64,000 nt of DNA from Escherichia phage BF15 (MW822007.1), one strand, 5' to 3'; shown: positions 48,696 to 55,551, counted from the stretch's first letter. Made by a program: numbers and translations. The notes: generated from the letters alone by a model not told the origin.

Positions 48696-49814
48696 ATGGA
48701 AAAATTTATGGCAGAGTTTGGACAAGGATATGTCCAAACGCCATTTTTATCGGAAAGTAATTCAGTAAGATACAAAATAAGTATAGCGGGTTCTTGCCCG
48801 CTTTCTACTGCAGAAGGACCATACGTTAAATTTCAGGATAATCCTGTAGGAAGTCAAACATTTAGCGCAGGCCTTCATTTAAGAGTTTTTGACCCTTCCA
48901 CAGGAGCATTAGTTGATAGTAAGTCATATGCTTTTTCGACTTCAAATGATACAACATCTGCCGCTTTTGTTAGTTTCATGAATTCTTTGACGAATAATCG
49001 AATTGTTGCTATATTAACTAACGGAAAGGTTAATTTTCCTCCTGAAGTAGCATCTTGGCTAAGAGCCGCGGGAACGTCTGCTTTTCCATCTGACTCTGTA
49101 TTGTCAAGATTCGACGTATCATATGCTGCTTTTTATACTTCTTCTAAAAGAGCTATCGCATTAGAGCATGTTAAATTAAGTAATAGAAAAAGCACAGATG
49201 ATTATCAAACTGTTTTAGATGTTGTATTTGACAGTTTAGAAGACGTCGGAGCTACCGGGTTTCCAAGAAGAACATATGAAAGCGTTGAGCAGTTTATGTC
49301 AGCGGTTGGTGGAACTAATAACGAAATTGCACGTTTACCAACTTCATCCGCGATAAGTAAATTATCTGATTATAATTTAATTCCTGGCGATGTTCTTTAT
49401 CTTAAAGCACAGTTATATGCTGATGCCGATTTACTTGCGCTTGGAACTACAAATATATCTATCCGTTTTTATGATGAATCGAATGGATATATTTCTTCAA
49501 CACATGCTGAGTTTACTGGACAAGCTGGGTCATGGGAATTAAAGGAAGATTATGTAGTTATTCCAGAAAACGCAGTAGGATTTACGATATATGCACAAAG
49601 AACTGCTCAAGCTGGTCAAGGCGGCATGAGAAATTTAAGCTTTTCTGAAGTATCAAGAAATGGTGGAATTTCAAAACCTGCTGAATTTGGCGTCAATGGT
49701 ATTCGAGTTAATTATGTCTGTGAATCTGCTTCACCTCCGGATATAATGGTACTTCCTACGCAAGCATCGTCTAAAACTGGTAAAGTGTTTGGACAAGAAT
49801 TTAGAGAAGTTTAA
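48696..49814 (+). CDS. 35: long tail fiber hinge protein gp35
   Basis: 372 aa; follows gene 34. Confidence 0.9.
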   Translation: MEKFMAEFGQGYVQTPFLSESNSVRYKISIAGSCPLSTAEGPYVKFQDNPVGSQTFSAGLHLRVFDPSTGALVDSKSYAFSTSNDTTSAAFVSFMNSLTNNRIVAILTNGKVNFPPEVASWLRAAGTSAFPSDSVLSRFDVSYAAFYTSSKRAIALEHVKLSNRKSTDDYQTVLDVVFDSLEDVGATGFPRRTYESVEQFMSAVGGTNNEIARLPTSSAISKLSDYNLIPGDVLYLKAQLYADADLLALGTTNISIRFYDESNGYISSTHAEFTGQAGSWELKEDYVVIPENAVGFTIYAQRTAQAGQGGMRNLSFSEVSRNGGISKPAEFGVNGIRVNYVCESASPPDIMVLPTQASSKTGKVFGQEFREV

Positions 49815-49845: not shown

Positions 49846-49853
49846 TATAAATA
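49846..49853 (+). promoter_or_regulatory. late promoter TATAAATA for gene 36
   Basis: Exact TATAAATA about 24 nt upstream of the gene 36 ATG. Confidence 0.55.
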
Positions 49854-49876: not shown

Positions 49877-50533
49877 ATGGCTGATTTAAAAGTAGGTTCA
49901 ACAACTGGAGGCTCTGTCATTTGGCATCAAGGAAATTTTCCATTGAATCCAGCCGGTGACGATGTACTCTATAAATCATTTAAAATATATTCAGAATACA
50001 ATAAACCACAAGCTGCTGATAACGATTTCGTTTCTAAAGCTAATGGTGGTACTTATTTAAATAGAGTAATTTTTAATAATGGAATAACGATTCCATTAGC
50101 AAGTAATTCTGGAAATGGTATATATCCTGGTAATGATGATGGAGCAACATTTGATACTACAAATATGGATATTGTTTCGTGGTATGGTATTGGTTTTAAA
50201 TCATCACAAGGTTCAGCAGACCGAACTGTTGTAATTAACACTCGAAATGGAGATATTAGCTCAAAGGGCGTAATTGAAGCATCACAAATCCGTGTAACTT
50301 CGTTATCACCAGTAAATAATTATGACCTTACACGGAAAGATTATGTTGATGGAGCAATAAATATTGTTACAGCAAACGCAAACTCTAGGGTATTACGCTC
50401 TGGAGACACTATGACAGGAAATTTAACTGCGCCAAACCTTTTTTCACAGAATCCCGCATCTCAACCTTCACATGTTCCACGATTTGACCAAATCGTGATT
50501 AAGGATTCTGTTCAAGATTTCGGCTATTATTAA
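49877..50533 (+). CDS. 36: long tail fiber distal connector gp36
   Basis: 218 aa; position between 35 and 37. Confidence 0.85.
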   Translation: MADLKVGSTTGGSVIWHQGNFPLNPAGDDVLYKSFKIYSEYNKPQAADNDFVSKANGGTYLNRVIFNNGITIPLASNSGNGIYPGNDDGATFDTTNMDIVSWYGIGFKSSQGSADRTVVINTRNGDISSKGVIEASQIRVTSLSPVNNYDLTRKDYVDGAINIVTANANSRVLRSGDTMTGNLTAPNLFSQNPASQPSHVPRFDQIVIKDSVQDFGYY

Positions 50534-50541
50534 GAGGACTT

Positions 50542-53500
50542 ATGGCTACTTTAAAACAAATACAATTTAAAAGAAGCAAAACTGCAGGAGCACGTCCTGC
50601 CGCTTCAGTATTAGCCGAAGGTGAATTGGCTATAAACTTAAAAGACCGTGTACTTTTTACTAAAGATGACCAAGGAAATATTATCGATCTGGGTTTTGCT
50701 AAAGGCGGTAGTATTGACGGGAATGTTATTCATACAGGCAATTATAACCAAACTGGCGATTATACTTTAAATGGCACCTTCACTCAGACTGGTAATTTTA
50801 ATTTAACTGGTATTGCTCGAGTAACTCGCGATATTATTGCCGCTGGGCAGATTATGACTGAAGGCGGAGAACTTATTACAAAAAGTTCAGGTACAGCGCA
50901 TGTTCGTTTTTTCGATAACAATAGTCGCGAACGTGGAATCATTTATGCCCCGGCTAATGATGGTTTAACTACACAAGTACTTAATATCAGGGTTCAAGAC
51001 TACGCCGCTGGTGATGAAAGCACCTATGCATTTTCGGGCAGTGGCCTATTTACTTCACCTGAAGTATCAGCATGGAAATCTATTTCGTCTCCACAAATTC
51101 TGACCGATAAAGTTATTACAAATGGGAAGAAGACAGGCGATTATGATATATCTTCATTAGCAAATAATAATTCTGATACAGATAAAAACTATTTGCGCAT
51201 TGTACGTACCGACCCAGCGGCCGCAATGCTCCATGAAATTTGCGAAAATAACGGCATCAGTTGGTATTCCGGTTCAACCCCTACTGATTACATGTTGTCT
51301 TTTGCTTATTCAGGTGGTTTTCAAGCTGGGCATTCGATTGCAGTAGGTATGGAATCAGGGCCTATAACATATTCAGCCTTAGGTAAAGGTTCTATTGCTC
51401 TTGGCGATAATGACACCGGGCTAAAATGGCATCAGGATGGATATTTTTTTACGGTAAGCAACGGTACAAAAACTTTCCTTTCTGGTCCGGCGGAAACCAC
51501 TAGCCTTAGAAAAATGGTTATGGGTTATTCTGTAAATGGTACTGATTTGACTACTCCTCCAACTGAAAATTATGCTCTTGCAACTGTAGTTACTTACCAT
51601 GATAATAACGCGTATGGTGACGGTCAGACTCTTTTAGGATATTATCAAGGTGGTAATTACCACCACTATTTCCGTGGTAAAGGCACTACAAATATTAACA
51701 CTGCAGGCGGATTGTTAGTTACTCCAGGCAATATTGACGTTATTGGTGGTTCTGTTAATATCGATGGTAGAAATAATTCTTCTACGCTGATGTTTAGAGG
51801 TAACACAACAGGATACAGCTCAGTTGATAATATGGATATTAAAGTTTGGGGTAATACTTTTGTTGATCCAAGCGAAGGCACCCGTAAAAATATCATGGAA
51901 ATTTCTGATGCAACTAGTTGGATGAGCTATATTCAAAGACTTACAACAGGTGAAGTAGAAATGAACGTTAACGGTTCATTTGAATCATCTGGTGTTACTG
52001 CTGGAAATAGAGGAGTTCACACAACAGGCGAAATTTCATCTGGAGCAGTGAATGCGCTTCGCATTTGGAACGCAGATTATGGAGCTATTTTTAGACGTTC
52101 AGAAGGTAGTCTTCATATTATTCCAACTGCTTATGGTGAAGGTAAACATGGTGATATCGGTCCACTTCGCCCGTTTAGTATGGCTTTAGATACTGGTAAA
52201 GTTACTATTCCAGATTTACAATCAAGTTACAATACGTTTGCAGCAAACGGTTATATTAAATTTACTGGTCACGGCGCAGGCGCGGGCGGTTATGATATTC
52301 AATATGTTCAAGCAGCTCCTGTTTTCCAAGAAATCGATGATGATGCTATAAGCAAATATTATCCTATTGTTAAACAGAAGTTTTTAAACGGTAAAGCCGT
52401 TTGGTCTTTAGGTACTGAAATTAATTCGGGTACATTTGTTTTACACCATATCAAAGAAGATGGATCACAAGGACATACATCTCGTTTTAATCAAGACGGT
52501 ACGGTTAATTTCCCTGATAATGTTCAGGTTGGTGGTGGTGAAGCTACTATTGCTCGCAACGGTAACATCTGGTCTGATATCTGGAAAACGTTTACTTCAG
52601 CAGGAGACACCACAAATATTCGCGATGCAATAGCTACCCGTGTTTCTAAAGAAGGCGACACGATGACCGGCACTCTTTGGATTAATAAAGATGCTGCTGG
52701 AATAGTTCTTAATCCTCCTTTGGCCAGTGATTCATCATTTATTCGTTCCGATACGGCCGGGGTAAATAATTGGTATATTGGTAAAGGCGGTGCCGACAAT
52801 GGTCTAGGTTTTTACAGTTATGTTACACAAGGCGGTGTATATATAACAAATAACGGAGAAATATCACTTTCTCCTCAAGGCCAAGGAACATTTAATTTTA
52901 ATAGAGACCGCCTCCATATAAACGGTACACAATGGACCGCACACCAGGGAGGTGGTTGGGGAAATCAATGGAATCAAGAAGCACCGGTATTTGTAGATTT
53001 TGGTAATGTTGGTAATGATAGTTATTATCCTATTATTAAAGGAAAATCCGGTATTACTAATGAAGGATACGTATCTGGTGTAGATTTTGGTATGCGACGC
53101 ATTACTAATACATGGGCACAAGGTATTATTCGTGTAGGTAATCAGGAAAATGGTTATGACCCACAAGCTGTATATGAATTCCATCATAACGGTACTTTTT
53201 ATGCTCCAAGCTTACTTAAGAGCAGTAGAGTATCAGCTGGTGGTGGTGACCCAGCATGGGGCAGTCCTTGTATTGTATTAGGTGACAATGATACCGGATT
53301 TCTTTGGGAAGCAGATGGTATTTTCAACGCATATGCAAACGGCCAAGGCGTATTCAGTTTTAGAGCTGGTCTCGCACAAACGTTCGGTAACGTTAACTTC
53401 CACTGTAACGCCGGTATGTATGTTCGTGATAACATTGATGTTAACGATGTTTATATCCGTTCTGATATTCGTTGTAAGTCAGAAATTAAGCTTATTAAGA

Positions 53501-53781
53501 ACGCTCAAGAGAAATCTAAACTCTTAGGCGGCTATACTTATCTGCTTAAAAACCCTGTTACAGACGAAGTTAAACCGTCTGCAGGTTTAATTGCTCAGGA
53601 AGTTCAAGAAGTATTACCTGAACTTGTTTCTGAAGATAAAGAGACCGGCTTACTTCGTTTAAACTATAACGGTATTATCGGTTTAAATACTGCTACTATC
53701 AACGAGCATACTGACGAAATCAAGGAATTGAAATCTGAAATTGCTGAGTTGAAAGCATTAATTAAATCATTGATAAAATAA
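50542..53781 (+). CDS. 37: long tail fiber distal subunit gp37 with C-terminal intramolecular chaperone domain
   Basis: 1079 aa; last 106 aa (from 53461) start S-D-I-R-C-K and contain GLIAQEVQEVLPELV, resembling auto-cleaving chaperone domains of phage fibers. Confidence 0.9.
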   Translation: MATLKQIQFKRSKTAGARPAASVLAEGELAINLKDRVLFTKDDQGNIIDLGFAKGGSIDGNVIHTGNYNQTGDYTLNGTFTQTGNFNLTGIARVTRDIIAAGQIMTEGGELITKSSGTAHVRFFDNNSRERGIIYAPANDGLTTQVLNIRVQDYAAGDESTYAFSGSGLFTSPEVSAWKSISSPQILTDKVITNGKKTGDYDISSLANNNSDTDKNYLRIVRTDPAAAMLHEICENNGISWYSGSTPTDYMLSFAYSGGFQAGHSIAVGMESGPITYSALGKGSIALGDNDTGLKWHQDGYFFTVSNGTKTFLSGPAETTSLRKMVMGYSVNGTDLTTPPTENYALATVVTYHDNNAYGDGQTLLGYYQGGNYHHYFRGKGTTNINTAGGLLVTPGNIDVIGGSVNIDGRNNSSTLMFRGNTTGYSSVDNMDIKVWGNTFVDPSEGTRKNIMEISDATSWMSYIQRLTTGEVEMNVNGSFESSGVTAGNRGVHTTGEISSGAVNALRIWNADYGAIFRRSEGSLHIIPTAYGEGKHGDIGPLRPFSMALDTGKVTIPDLQSSYNTFAANGYIKFTGHGAGAGGYDIQYVQAAPVFQEIDDDAISKYYPIVKQKFLNGKAVWSLGTEINSGTFVLHHIKEDGSQGHTSRFNQDGTVNFPDNVQVGGGEATIARNGNIWSDIWKTFTSAGDTTNIRDAIATRVSKEGDTMTGTLWINKDAAGIVLNPPLASDSSFIRSDTAGVNNWYIGKGGADNGLGFYSYVTQGGVYITNNGEISLSPQGQGTFNFNRDRLHINGTQWTAHQGGGWGNQWNQEAPVFVDFGNVGNDSYYPIIKGKSGITNEGYVSGVDFGMRRITNTWAQGIIRVGNQENGYDPQAVYEFHHNGTFYAPSLLKSSRVSAGGGDPAWGSPCIVLGDNDTGFLWEADGIFNAYANGQGVFSFRAGLAQTFGNVNFHCNAGMYVRDNIDVNDVYIRSDIRCKSEIKLIKNAQEKSKLLGGYTYLLKNPVTDEVKPSAGLIAQEVQEVLPELVSEDKETGLLRLNYNGIIGLNTATINEHTDEIKELKSEIAELKALIKSLIK

Positions 53782-53811
53782 TAAAAGGGCCTTCGGGCCC
53801 TGGAGGTTTAT

Positions 53812-54591
53812 ATGGCAGTAGTAGGAATCCCTGGTTGGATTGGGACTTCAGCCGTCGCTGAAACAGGCCAACGTTGGATGACAGCAGCTTCTAGAGAATT
53901 GCGTCTTGGTAACCCATCTTGGATGTCCCAATTCGCAGGCCGCTCAAGAGAAATTATTCACACACTTGGAGCAGACCATAACTTCAATGGTCAATGGTTC
54001 CGAGATAGATGTTTTGAGGCAGGTAGTGCACCTATAGTGTTTAATATTACAGGTGATTTAGTATCATATTCTAAAGATGTTCCTTTATTTTTCATGTATG
54101 GAGATACACCGAATGAATATGTTCAGTTGAATATACACGGCGTAACGATGTATGGACGTGGCGGTAATGGCGGTAGCAATAGTCCTGGCTCAGCTGGAGG
54201 TCATTGTATTCAAAACGATATTGGTGGGAGACTAAGAATTAATAATGGTGGAGCTATTGCAGGCGGCGGTGGCGGCGGTGGCGGCGGTAACAGGGGTAGA
54301 CTAGTATTTGGTGGCGGCGGTGGTCGTCCATTTGGTGCTGGTGGGTCTTCCTCTCATATGAGTGCTGGTGCAACCGCTGGCACCATTTACGCTCCGGGTG
54401 CAGGATCTGTCGGTGAGGGGTCTCTTAGTGCATATACAGGCGGGTCTGGTGGTGAAGTAGGTTCCGCGGGAGGTAGATGTAATACTCACGGTGCCGGTAC
54501 AGAATATAACGGCGGAGCTGCTGGTTATGCTGTTATAGGGTCTGCTCCAACGTGGATAAATGTTGGAGCAATATATGGTCCAAGAGTATAA
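53812..54591 (+). CDS. 38: T2-type gp38 tail fiber adhesin with glycine-rich motifs
   Basis: 259 aa; conserved N-terminal attachment region then poly-Gly motifs ([25 protein letters not shown]) separated by variable segments. Confidence 0.85.
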
Positions 54592-54621
54592 TTTGAATAA
54601 ATATCCTTAAAAGGAGGGTCT

Positions 54622-55278
54622 ATGGCAGCACCTAGAATATCATTTTCGCCCTCTGATATTCTGTTTGGTGTTCTAGATCGCTTGTTCAAAGATAACGCTA
54701 CCGGGAAAGTTCTTGCTTCCCGGGTAGCTGTCGTAATTCTTTTATTTATGATGGCGATTGTTTGGTATAGGGGAGATAGTTTCTTTGAGTACTATAAGCA
54801 ATCAAAGTATGAAACATACAGTGAAATTATTGAAAAGGAAAGAAATGCACGCTTTGAATCTGTCGCCCTGGAACAACTCCAGATAGTTCATATATCATCT
54901 GAGGCAGACTTTAGTGCGGTGTATTCTTTCCGCCCTAAAAACTTAAACTATTTTGTTGATATTATAGCATACGAAGGAAAATTACCTTCAACAATAAGTG
55001 AAAAATCACTTGGAGGATATCCTGTTGATAAAACTATGGATGAATATACAGTTCATTTAAATGGACGTCATTATTATTCCAACTCAAAATTTGCTTTTTT
55101 ACCAACTAAAAAGCCTACTCCCGAAATAAACTACATGTACAGTTGTCCATATTTTAATTTGGATAATATCTATGCTGGAACGATAACCATGTACTGGTAT
55201 AGAAATGATCATATAAGTAATGACCGCCTTGAATCAATATGTTCTCAGGCGGCCAGAATATTAGGAAGGGCTAAATAA
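54622..55278 (+). CDS. t: holin T
   Basis: 218 aa; single N-terminal transmembrane helix and large periplasmic domain; RBS AAGGAGG. Confidence 0.9.
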   Translation: MAAPRISFSPSDILFGVLDRLFKDNATGKVLASRVAVVILLFMMAIVWYRGDSFFEYYKQSKYETYSEIIEKERNARFESVALEQLQIVHISSEADFSAVYSFRPKNLNYFVDIIAYEGKLPSTISEKSLGGYPVDKTMDEYTVHLNGRHYYSNSKFAFLPTKKPTPEINYMYSCPYFNLDNIYAGTITMYWYRNDHISNDRLESICSQAARILGRAK

Positions 55279-55551
55279 TTATTTGTTTGTATACATCTCT
55301 AGATATCGATATACACCCTCAAAACCCTCGTTGAATTCGTCGATGAGGGTTTTCTTATCTTCTTGGGTTAATTCAGAAACAATTTTACGGAATGAATTCT
55401 GATTTAACTTTCTACCTTCATGCGTTACTCCAATCTCATTCAGAAATGCAATAAAATTAGCACGATTCTCAACAATATCTTCTCTGGAAAATTTAATCAA
55501 AATAGACGCAACAGTAATAATTTCACGAACTGTATCAATGTTTTTATTCAT
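55279..55551 (-). CDS. asiA: AsiA anti-sigma-70 factor
   Basis: 90 aa, same length and position as T4 AsiA. Confidence 0.9.
   Translation of the reverse strand: MNKNIDTVREIITVASILIKFSREDIVENRANFIAFLNEIGVTHEGRKLNQNSFRKIVSELTQEDKKTLIDEFNEGFEGVYRYLEMYTNK

Follow-up and report, generated by a model that had tools for sequence, protein, structure and literature searches.

Genes 37 and 38 of Escherichia phage BF15 (MW822007.1), which occupy positions 50,542 to 54,591 of the 64,000-nucleotide stretch analysed here (the window), make up, with a probability of roughly 0.93, a Tequatrovirus long-tail-fibre tip of the canonical T2/S16 type, and nothing in the evidence contradicts this architecture. Gene 37 (50542–53781) is an ORF coding the 1079-residue, 116.3 kDa precursor of the distal long-tail-fibre subunit, and the ORF of gene 38 (53812–54591) codes a T2-type receptor-binding adhesin of 259 residues (25.9 kDa). 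All features described are on the + strand. Gene 37 is closed by a double stop (TAA TAA, 53779–53784) and a gap of 30 nt separates its stop from gene 38, which is found directly downstream of the sequence coding the chaperone-ended gp37. In GenBank the two products are exact matches to phage BF15 entries, gp37 to the “long-tail fiber protein” QXN75948.1 and gp38 to the “long-tail fiber adhesin” QXN75949.1. The family PHROG 1699, annotated as “long tail fiber protein distal subunit”, covers full-length gp37 with E 0. The architecture and biology of this tip module are already textbook knowledge (Trojet 2011; Dunne 2018).

The amino terminus of gp38 (residues 1–42; 53812–53937) is its attachment domain, defined by similarity to Gp38_N (PF21721, E 5.6e-21). 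Residues 47–259 match the Pfam family GP38 (PF05268, E 1.3e-69) over model positions 1–218 of 218, and PHROG 2056 (“tail fiber protein; host specificity”, E 6e-108) covers the full-length protein. Two proteins of known structure have robust similarity to it: residues 39–259 match the receptor-binding domain of PP01 gp38 (9V85, E 1e-79; the identity of the entry is confirmed in PMC12892980) and residues 8–256 match S16 gp38 (6F45_D, E 3e-53). The attachment domain carries Trp9, Trp22 and Trp37, which are invariant across gp38 alignments that include the proteins of T2, T6, S16, FL12, FL20 and ST2. In the S16 structure the three tryptophans insert as prongs into pockets of gp37 (PMC6851490). The BF15 protein belongs to a 29-member cluster of proteins at 90%, together with gp38 of EV240, NBG2, FL12 and Ac3, and its relatives amount to 761 records in the phage collection.

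An entropy profile of 20 distinct gp38 sequences (seven references and relatives from IMG/VR) divides the remainder of the protein into five near-invariant glycine-rich motifs (GRM) that alternate with four high-entropy hypervariable segments (HVS), which is the plan described by Trojet et al. (PMC3157838). GRM1 (residues 115–120, GRGGNG; 54154–54171) precedes HVS1 (121–128, GSNSPGSA; 54172–54195). GRM2 (146–158; 54247–54285), corresponding to the long polyglycine helix in the structure of S16 gp38 (PMC6851490), precedes HVS2 (159–166, GNRGRLVF; 54286–54309), which also varies in length. GRM3 (167–178; 54310–54345) leads to the longest variable segment, HVS3 (179–210; 54346–54441), that is split by the conserved Pro195-Gly196. 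GRM4 (211–221; 54442–54474) is followed by HVS4 (222–233; 54475–54510), while GRM5 (234–243) and a conserved carboxyl terminal strand (244–259) complete the protein (54511–54588). Glycine accounts for 38% of residues 115–243, whose coding DNA has 55% G+C versus 36% in the window. The loops between the glycine motifs are specificity determinants (PMC3157838; PMC12032242; bioRxiv 10.64898/2026.04.02.716166).

Gp37 ends in an intramolecular chaperone (IMC; Peptidase_S74 / ICA) domain spanning residues 974–1079 (53461–53778). The codon of Ser974 begins at position 53461, in the context ...NIDVNDVYIR-SDIRCK-SEIKLIKN..., and the segment from Ser974 to Lys1079 comprises exactly the last 106 of the 1079 residues (11.8 kDa). 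Family PF13884 (Peptidase_S74, “chaperone of endosialidase”) matches residues 974–1029 (E 1.6e-11; model positions 1–57 of 58) with 44.7 bits versus a curated cut-off of 22. The S74, Gp38_N, GP38 and glycine-motif signals are all far beyond chance. Homology to the S16 gp37 tip, crystallised as construct 6F45_A, spans residues 905–1079 (E 3e-30). Within this region residues 905–973 (53254–53460), which align to residues 22–87 of 6F45_A, correspond to the distal beta-helical tip, whose last strand is DVYIR, and would be the docking platform for gp38. More distant homologs were reached with a profile built from six gp37 carboxyl termini (window, ST2, T2, T6, S16 and Shf125875) and searched against PDB sequences, namely the ICA domain of MyRF (7DC3, E 1e-8), the tail fibre 8JOV (E 5e-7) and the released chaperone of the GA-1 neck appendage protein (3GUD, E 0.006). 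The profile was needed because phmmer with the 113 carboxyl terminal gp37 residues alone gave just S16 and a marginal MyRF match (E 0.069) in the PDB. The chaperones of endosialidase and MyRF (3GW6, 7DC3, 3GUD) share with the BF15 domain a Ser-Lys pair of S-x4-K spacing at the domain start, a GxIAQE core and, as predicted for BF15, a carboxyl terminal helix, but they are distant relatives seen at profile level only, and the BF15 fibre differs from them in that it would afterwards be capped by a separate adhesin.

The predicted autocleavage site is the bond between Arg973 and Ser974 (53458–53463). Ser974 and Lys979 (53476–53478) have S-x4-K spacing at the amino terminal boundary of the domain and make a putative catalytic dyad; dyads of the same spacing are S911/K916 of endoNF and S587/K592 of MyRF (PMC8326128). 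The alignment of the six gp37 carboxyl termini shows no variation at the Ser, Asp, Arg and Lys of S-D-x-R-x-K. The last 113 residues of S16 gp37 are autocleaved at DLNVS^SDRRIKK, where ^ denotes the cut, and a cut DVYIR^SDGRLK that follows the pre-cleavage strand DVYIR was predicted for the fPS phages and related Tequatroviruses (PMC7917993). The predicted BF15 cut, DVYIR^SDIRCK, falls at the published position because the S16 (S^SDRRIK) and fPS sites align there. The first residues (SD) of the 129-residue chain 3GUD_A likewise align to Ser974-Asp975.

The original prediction, made from the DNA alone, had assigned a chaperone role to the last 106 residues of gp37, proposed their removal at the Ser of SDIRCK and identified the 259-residue product of the next gene as a T2-type glycine-rich adhesin. 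Its coordinates, peptides and lengths agree with the ORFs, both domain assignments are borne out by the Pfam, PHROG, structural and profile matches, and the site it named is that published for S16 and the fPS phages. Mapping of the variable segments by alignment with T2-type adhesins, which it had proposed as a check, yields the five GRM and four HVS given above, and its attribution of specificity to the loops between glycine motifs accords with the literature. It was also right that the arrangement differs from that of T4 (see below).

By analogy with the homologous systems, gp37 would be made as a 116-kDa precursor whose 106-residue IMC, by forming a trimer, would nucleate the folding of the trimeric beta-helical fibre. 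The Ser974/Lys979 dyad would then cut the Arg973-Ser974 bond, and departure of the 11.8-kDa IMC would expose a flat tip of three DVYIR strands. One gp38 is predicted to dock on this tip through its amino terminal three-helix domain, Trp9, Trp22 and Trp37 entering three equivalent pockets, which gives a 3:1 capping of gp37 by gp38. The carboxyl terminal half of gp38 would fold as a polyglycine-II (PGII) sandwich from the five glycine-rich motifs, and the hypervariable loops on its distal face would bind the host outer-membrane receptor, predicted to be OmpA.

Such organization is shared with the gp37-gp38 tip of S16 (PDB 6F45; Dunne et al. 2018): both have a beta-helical gp37 tip, an IMC whose cut, predicted in BF15, precedes S-D-x-R-x-K, a gp38 with a three-Trp attachment domain, beta-helix and PGII sandwich, and the gene order g37-g38-t. 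S16, a Gelderlandvirus of Salmonella, differs in its gp38 (52% identical to that of BF15, with different HVS), in its pre-cleavage strand (DLNVS instead of DVYIR), in the length of its IMC (113 residues instead of 106) and in its shorter gp37 (749 residues versus 1079). T2 and T6 (Trojet et al. 2011) also have a gp37 with S74 that carries the same VYIR|SD motif, is processed at the carboxyl terminus and is then capped by a gp38 of ~260 residues with five GRM and four HVS (PMC3157838). However, the gp37 shaft of BF15 is ~33% identical to that of T2, its gp38 is 52% identical to T2 gp38 and 82% to T6 gp38, and HVS2–4 differ. The receptors of these phages are FadL/OmpF (T2) and Tsx (T6).

The receptor of BF15 gp38 is in good likelihood OmpA, as predicted by analogy with phages of related adhesins. 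Between residues 48 and 259 the protein differs from FL12 gp38 just by A73T, A245T and I249Q, none of which is within a HVS, and at the amino acid level none of the four HVS departs from FL12. At DNA level the region 53954–54457 is 95–100% identical to FL12 and, from 54104, identity is 100% in most 60-nt windows. Infectivity of FL12 is lost on ompA deletion and the phage is classified in the “type 2”, narrower-host-range OmpA group; OmpA dependence is known for FL12, FL18 and FL20 (PMC12032242). The HVS of BF15 are of this FL12/FL18/FL20 type, the “type 2” OmpA group of Lutz et al. 2025, and identity to FL20 gp38 is 90% over the entire protein. BF15 gp38 is also 93% identical to gp38 of EV240, with 8 differences in residues 48–259. 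EV240 is OmpA/HepI-dependent, and phage CM8, given the part of this gp38 that starts with HVS2, changed from Tsx to OmpA (bioRxiv 10.64898/2026.04.02.716166). OmpA is thus predicted because the specificity domain of BF15 gp38 is nearly that of the OmpA-dependent FL12 and EV240: they have in essence one allele and fall within one 90% protein cluster, whereas the attachment domain (residues 1–47) and the partner gp37 of these phages are of another type (the FL12 gp37 is T2-like and has 1179 residues).

Several points qualify the proposed tip and its receptor. Single HVS changes can switch porins, as does Q206L from OmpF to OmpW (bioRxiv 10.64898/2026.04.02.716166), and gp37, lipopolysaccharide (LPS) or O-antigen context could modulate host range too. 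The paper describing BF15 (PMC10059673) makes no mention of gp37, gp38, an adhesin or a receptor, so that the OmpA prediction is a small addition. The single-sequence AlphaFold2 model of gp37 905–1079 has a mean pLDDT of 38 and is unusable, and the chaperone fold is for this reason assigned from sequence and profile homology; the sole confident part of the model is the terminal helix (model residues 153–173, gp37 1057–1077; block pLDDT 61–83), a region that aligns to the MyRF helix region. Finally, Cys978 lies within the dyad motif at a position where most other types have Leu, Ile or Val. This residue is typical of the present IMC subtype and, speculatively, could modulate autocleavage.

The alternative that fares best accepts the adhesin as described but gives it a receptor other than OmpA (Tsx, OmpF, FadL, OmpC or OmpW), or makes a second receptor necessary. 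Porin switching by single HVS changes counts in its favour, as do the 82% overall identity and the common HVS1 of the Tsx-binding T6 gp38, the placement by Lutz et al. (PMC12032242) of the type 2 OmpA adhesins near those that bind Tsx and the requirement of some gp38 phages for two receptors (PMC3157838). It is nevertheless rather improbable: T6 is strongly different in HVS2, HVS3 and HVS4, all four HVS are identical to those of FL12, whose OmpA dependence was established by plating on a deletion mutant, and the nearly identical EV240 gp38 confers OmpA specificity when transferred. Far less credible is that the S74 domain stays uncleaved in the mature fibre, with gp38 attached elsewhere or acting only as an assembly factor. 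The unusual Cys978 in the dyad loop, together with the predicted status of BF15 gp37 processing, leaves this option some room. Opposed to it are the intact and conserved Ser/Lys dyad and flanking DVYIR strand, autocleavage of the homologous S16 domain that exposes the gp38 docking surface at the cleaved gp37 end (PMC7917993, PMC6851490), the established processing of T2/T6 gp37 (PMC3157838) and the lack of similarity of gp38 to the T4 chaperone.

The gp37-gp38 arrangement of BF15 differs from the gp37 needle tip of T4 and its gp38/gp57A chaperones. The genes have the same genomic position in T4, and the overall fibre, the gp37 amino terminus and a Gp34_trimer-like domain are common to both systems. 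The S74 domain ends gp37 of T2, T6, S16 and Shf125875, whereas T4 gp37 has no S74 and ends instead in Collar and His-rich fibre-repeat domains (PF07484, PF03335); the alignment of BF15 and T4 gp37 stops at BF15 residue 636. T4 gp38 and BF15 gp38 are unrelated (BLASTP E 0.98), and a T4-type assembly chaperone was rejected as the function of the latter. A copy of the Gp34_trimer domain is found in BF15 gp37 at residues 447–546 (51880–52179) and matches the solved gp34 fragments 4UXE and 5NXF (E ~1e-13); this domain is thus common to the proximal and distal half-fibres. It is also present in gp37 of T2, T6 and Shf125875, and in T4 gp37 it scores below the Pfam cut-off.

The motif [IV][RS]-SD-x-R-x-K is found upstream of the Gp38_N-type gene in 25/25 IMG/VR loci, at 92–117 residues from the carboxyl terminus of the preceding ORF. 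This holds also for loci with short adhesins. The IMC and the gp38 attachment domain are thus a linked pair, a linkage that fits the published mechanism in which IMC release uncovers the docking face. The short proteins (155–174 aa) are encoded in loci L022–L024, L026, L027 and L029–L034, on contigs of ~30–183 kb. They share with BF15 gp38 only the attachment domain (residues 1–64 or 8–45) and are devoid of the polyglycine domain, and each of them is likewise downstream of a fibre gene ending in the SDxRxK chaperone domain. It seems that Gp38_N can be combined, as a portable adaptor, with adhesin heads of different kinds. Note that in the Krischvirus FL20 (PP400781.1) the gp38 gene is at genome position 449–1228 and does not adjoin a gene 37, in agreement with the ~55 kb that separate gp38 from gp37 in Krischvirus (bioRxiv 10.64898/2026.04.02.716166).

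The tip genes lie between a left flank that extends to ~50052 and a right flank that starts at 54597, both of ordinary Tequatrovirus sequence, 91–98% identical to T4 and equally close to T2/T6. Between ~50709 and 53950 blastn yields a weak ~100-nt match to T4 or T2, and T6 gives one match of 446 nt with 68% identity; the region 50775–54510 has a single weak match of 104 nt to T2. BF15 gp37 has 35% identity with that of T4 and 33.5% with that of T2, and its IMC is 40% identical to that of T2, 50% to that of S16 and 97% to those of Shf125875 and ST2. The closest relatives of the cassette are found in the Mosigvirus phages Shf125875 and TH12, in phage ST2 and in Tequatrovirus bov9_1. TH12 and Shf125875 have 87–92% identity over the ~50709–53950 block, rising to 96–100% at DNA level from the IMC through the intergenic hairpin to the 5′ end of gene 38, and Shf125875 gp37 also has 1079 residues. 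Their gp38 specificity domains diverge after ~nt 54100, and the flanking genes of Shf125875, TH12 and ST2 are ~72% identical to those of the window. The ST2 record (OM982647.1), a 171-kb T4-like genome with flanks ~70–85% identical to the window around the locus, is labelled Guernseyvirinae; Kagunavirus, which looks like a database mislabel.

The DNA coding the gp38 attachment domain is of the Mosigvirus/ST2 type, not of the FL12 type. Sliding identity places a likely recombination junction at 53954–54043 (~residues 48–77), where identity to FL12 climbs from 56–78% to 98% and identity to Shf125875/TH12 is still 98–100%, dropping downstream. The junction coincides with the conserved linker that follows the attachment domain. 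Gp38 thus reads as a chimera in which a Mosigvirus/ST2-type attachment domain is joined near residue 47 to an FL12-like specificity domain, and sequence comparison presents the locus as recombinant at two scales, a Mosigvirus-type cassette of gene 37 and the gene 38 amino terminus in a T4-like backbone and a crossover within gp38. The layout agrees with the finding that PP01 gp38 was nonfunctional on T2 gp37 until given the T2 amino terminal 113 residues, a failure ascribed by the authors to likely gp37-gp38 incompatibility (PMC12892980), as the amino terminal domain must match the gp37 tip. It is about as likely as not that BF15 is a natural chimera in which a whole distal half-fibre cassette (gene 37 shaft, IMC and gp38 attachment domain) moved between Mosigvirus and Tequatrovirus and a second crossover grafted an OmpA type-2 specificity domain at residues ~48–77. 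Similarity to FL12/T6 also breaks off in the middle of gene 36 (50053–50329) and resumes at 50328–50708 over the gene 36 carboxyl terminus and gene 37 amino terminus coding regions, which suggests a further small exchange patch inside gene 36.

The “T4/T2 mosaic” of the original prediction holds for the T2-type architecture but not for ancestry, given the 33.5% identity of gp37 to T2 and the relatives in Mosigvirus, ST2 and bov9_1. A direct T4 x T2 recombinant, for which a T2-type arrangement within T4-like flanks might be taken to speak, is hardly believable in view of the low gp37 and IMC identity to T2, the weak 104-nt DNA match, flanks that are as close to T2 as to T6 and the presence of the same gp37 type in Mosigvirus phages and Tequatrovirus bov9_1. 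Direct T2 ancestry of the gene 37–gene 38 cassette was thus rejected from the sequence comparisons.

A C(UUCG)G hairpin, A-GGGCC-UUCG-GGCCC-U (53786–53801), recognized by sequence and fold, is placed between the double stop of gene 37 and the Shine-Dalgarno sequence GGAGG of gene 38 (53802–53806). ST2, Shf125875 and TH12 have the hairpin stretch with 100% identity, though the nearby coding sequence varies, and the fold z-score of the 61-nt stretch around it is unremarkable (-0.73). Its function as a + strand terminator was rejected: there is no T-run on the + strand and the terminator scan flags the - strand only. It is probably an mRNA-stabilising or processing element. Elements of this kind are present in T4 intercistronic regions. 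The region 53300–55400 has 6 sigma-70-like promoters versus 6.1 expected, that is, no signal. A T4-type late-promoter box, TATAAATA, is found by pattern matching at 49846–49853, 24 nt upstream of gene 36. Such boxes show no enrichment across the window (10 versus 9.2 expected) and the box at 49846 is, for this reason, identified by its position as the probable start of a g36-g37-g38 late transcript.

The ORFs flanking the tip module are gene 35 (48696–49814), also supported by Pfam and coding the hinge protein gp35, gene 36 (49877–50533) and, downstream of gene 38, the holin gene t (54622–55278). Residues 59–127 of gp35 match ILEI (interleukin-like EMT inducer / FAM3-type, PF15711; E 6.8e-9) above the curated cut-off, a family name unexpected for the hinge of a phage fibre.

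The gp37-gp38 module sets the host range of the phage, and for BF15 a receptor can be predicted from the sequence, OmpA recognized by a narrow-host-range “type 2” allele. The significance is practical only and opens no new question. The mosaic boundaries illustrate the published rule that the gp38 amino terminal domain moves together with the gp37 tip and the specificity domain is exchanged on its own, a rule that helps the design of chimeric adhesins. If BF15 gp38 is truly a natural chimera, adhesin heads could be swapped between incompatible gp37 scaffolds at a junction that is defined and has been validated in nature.

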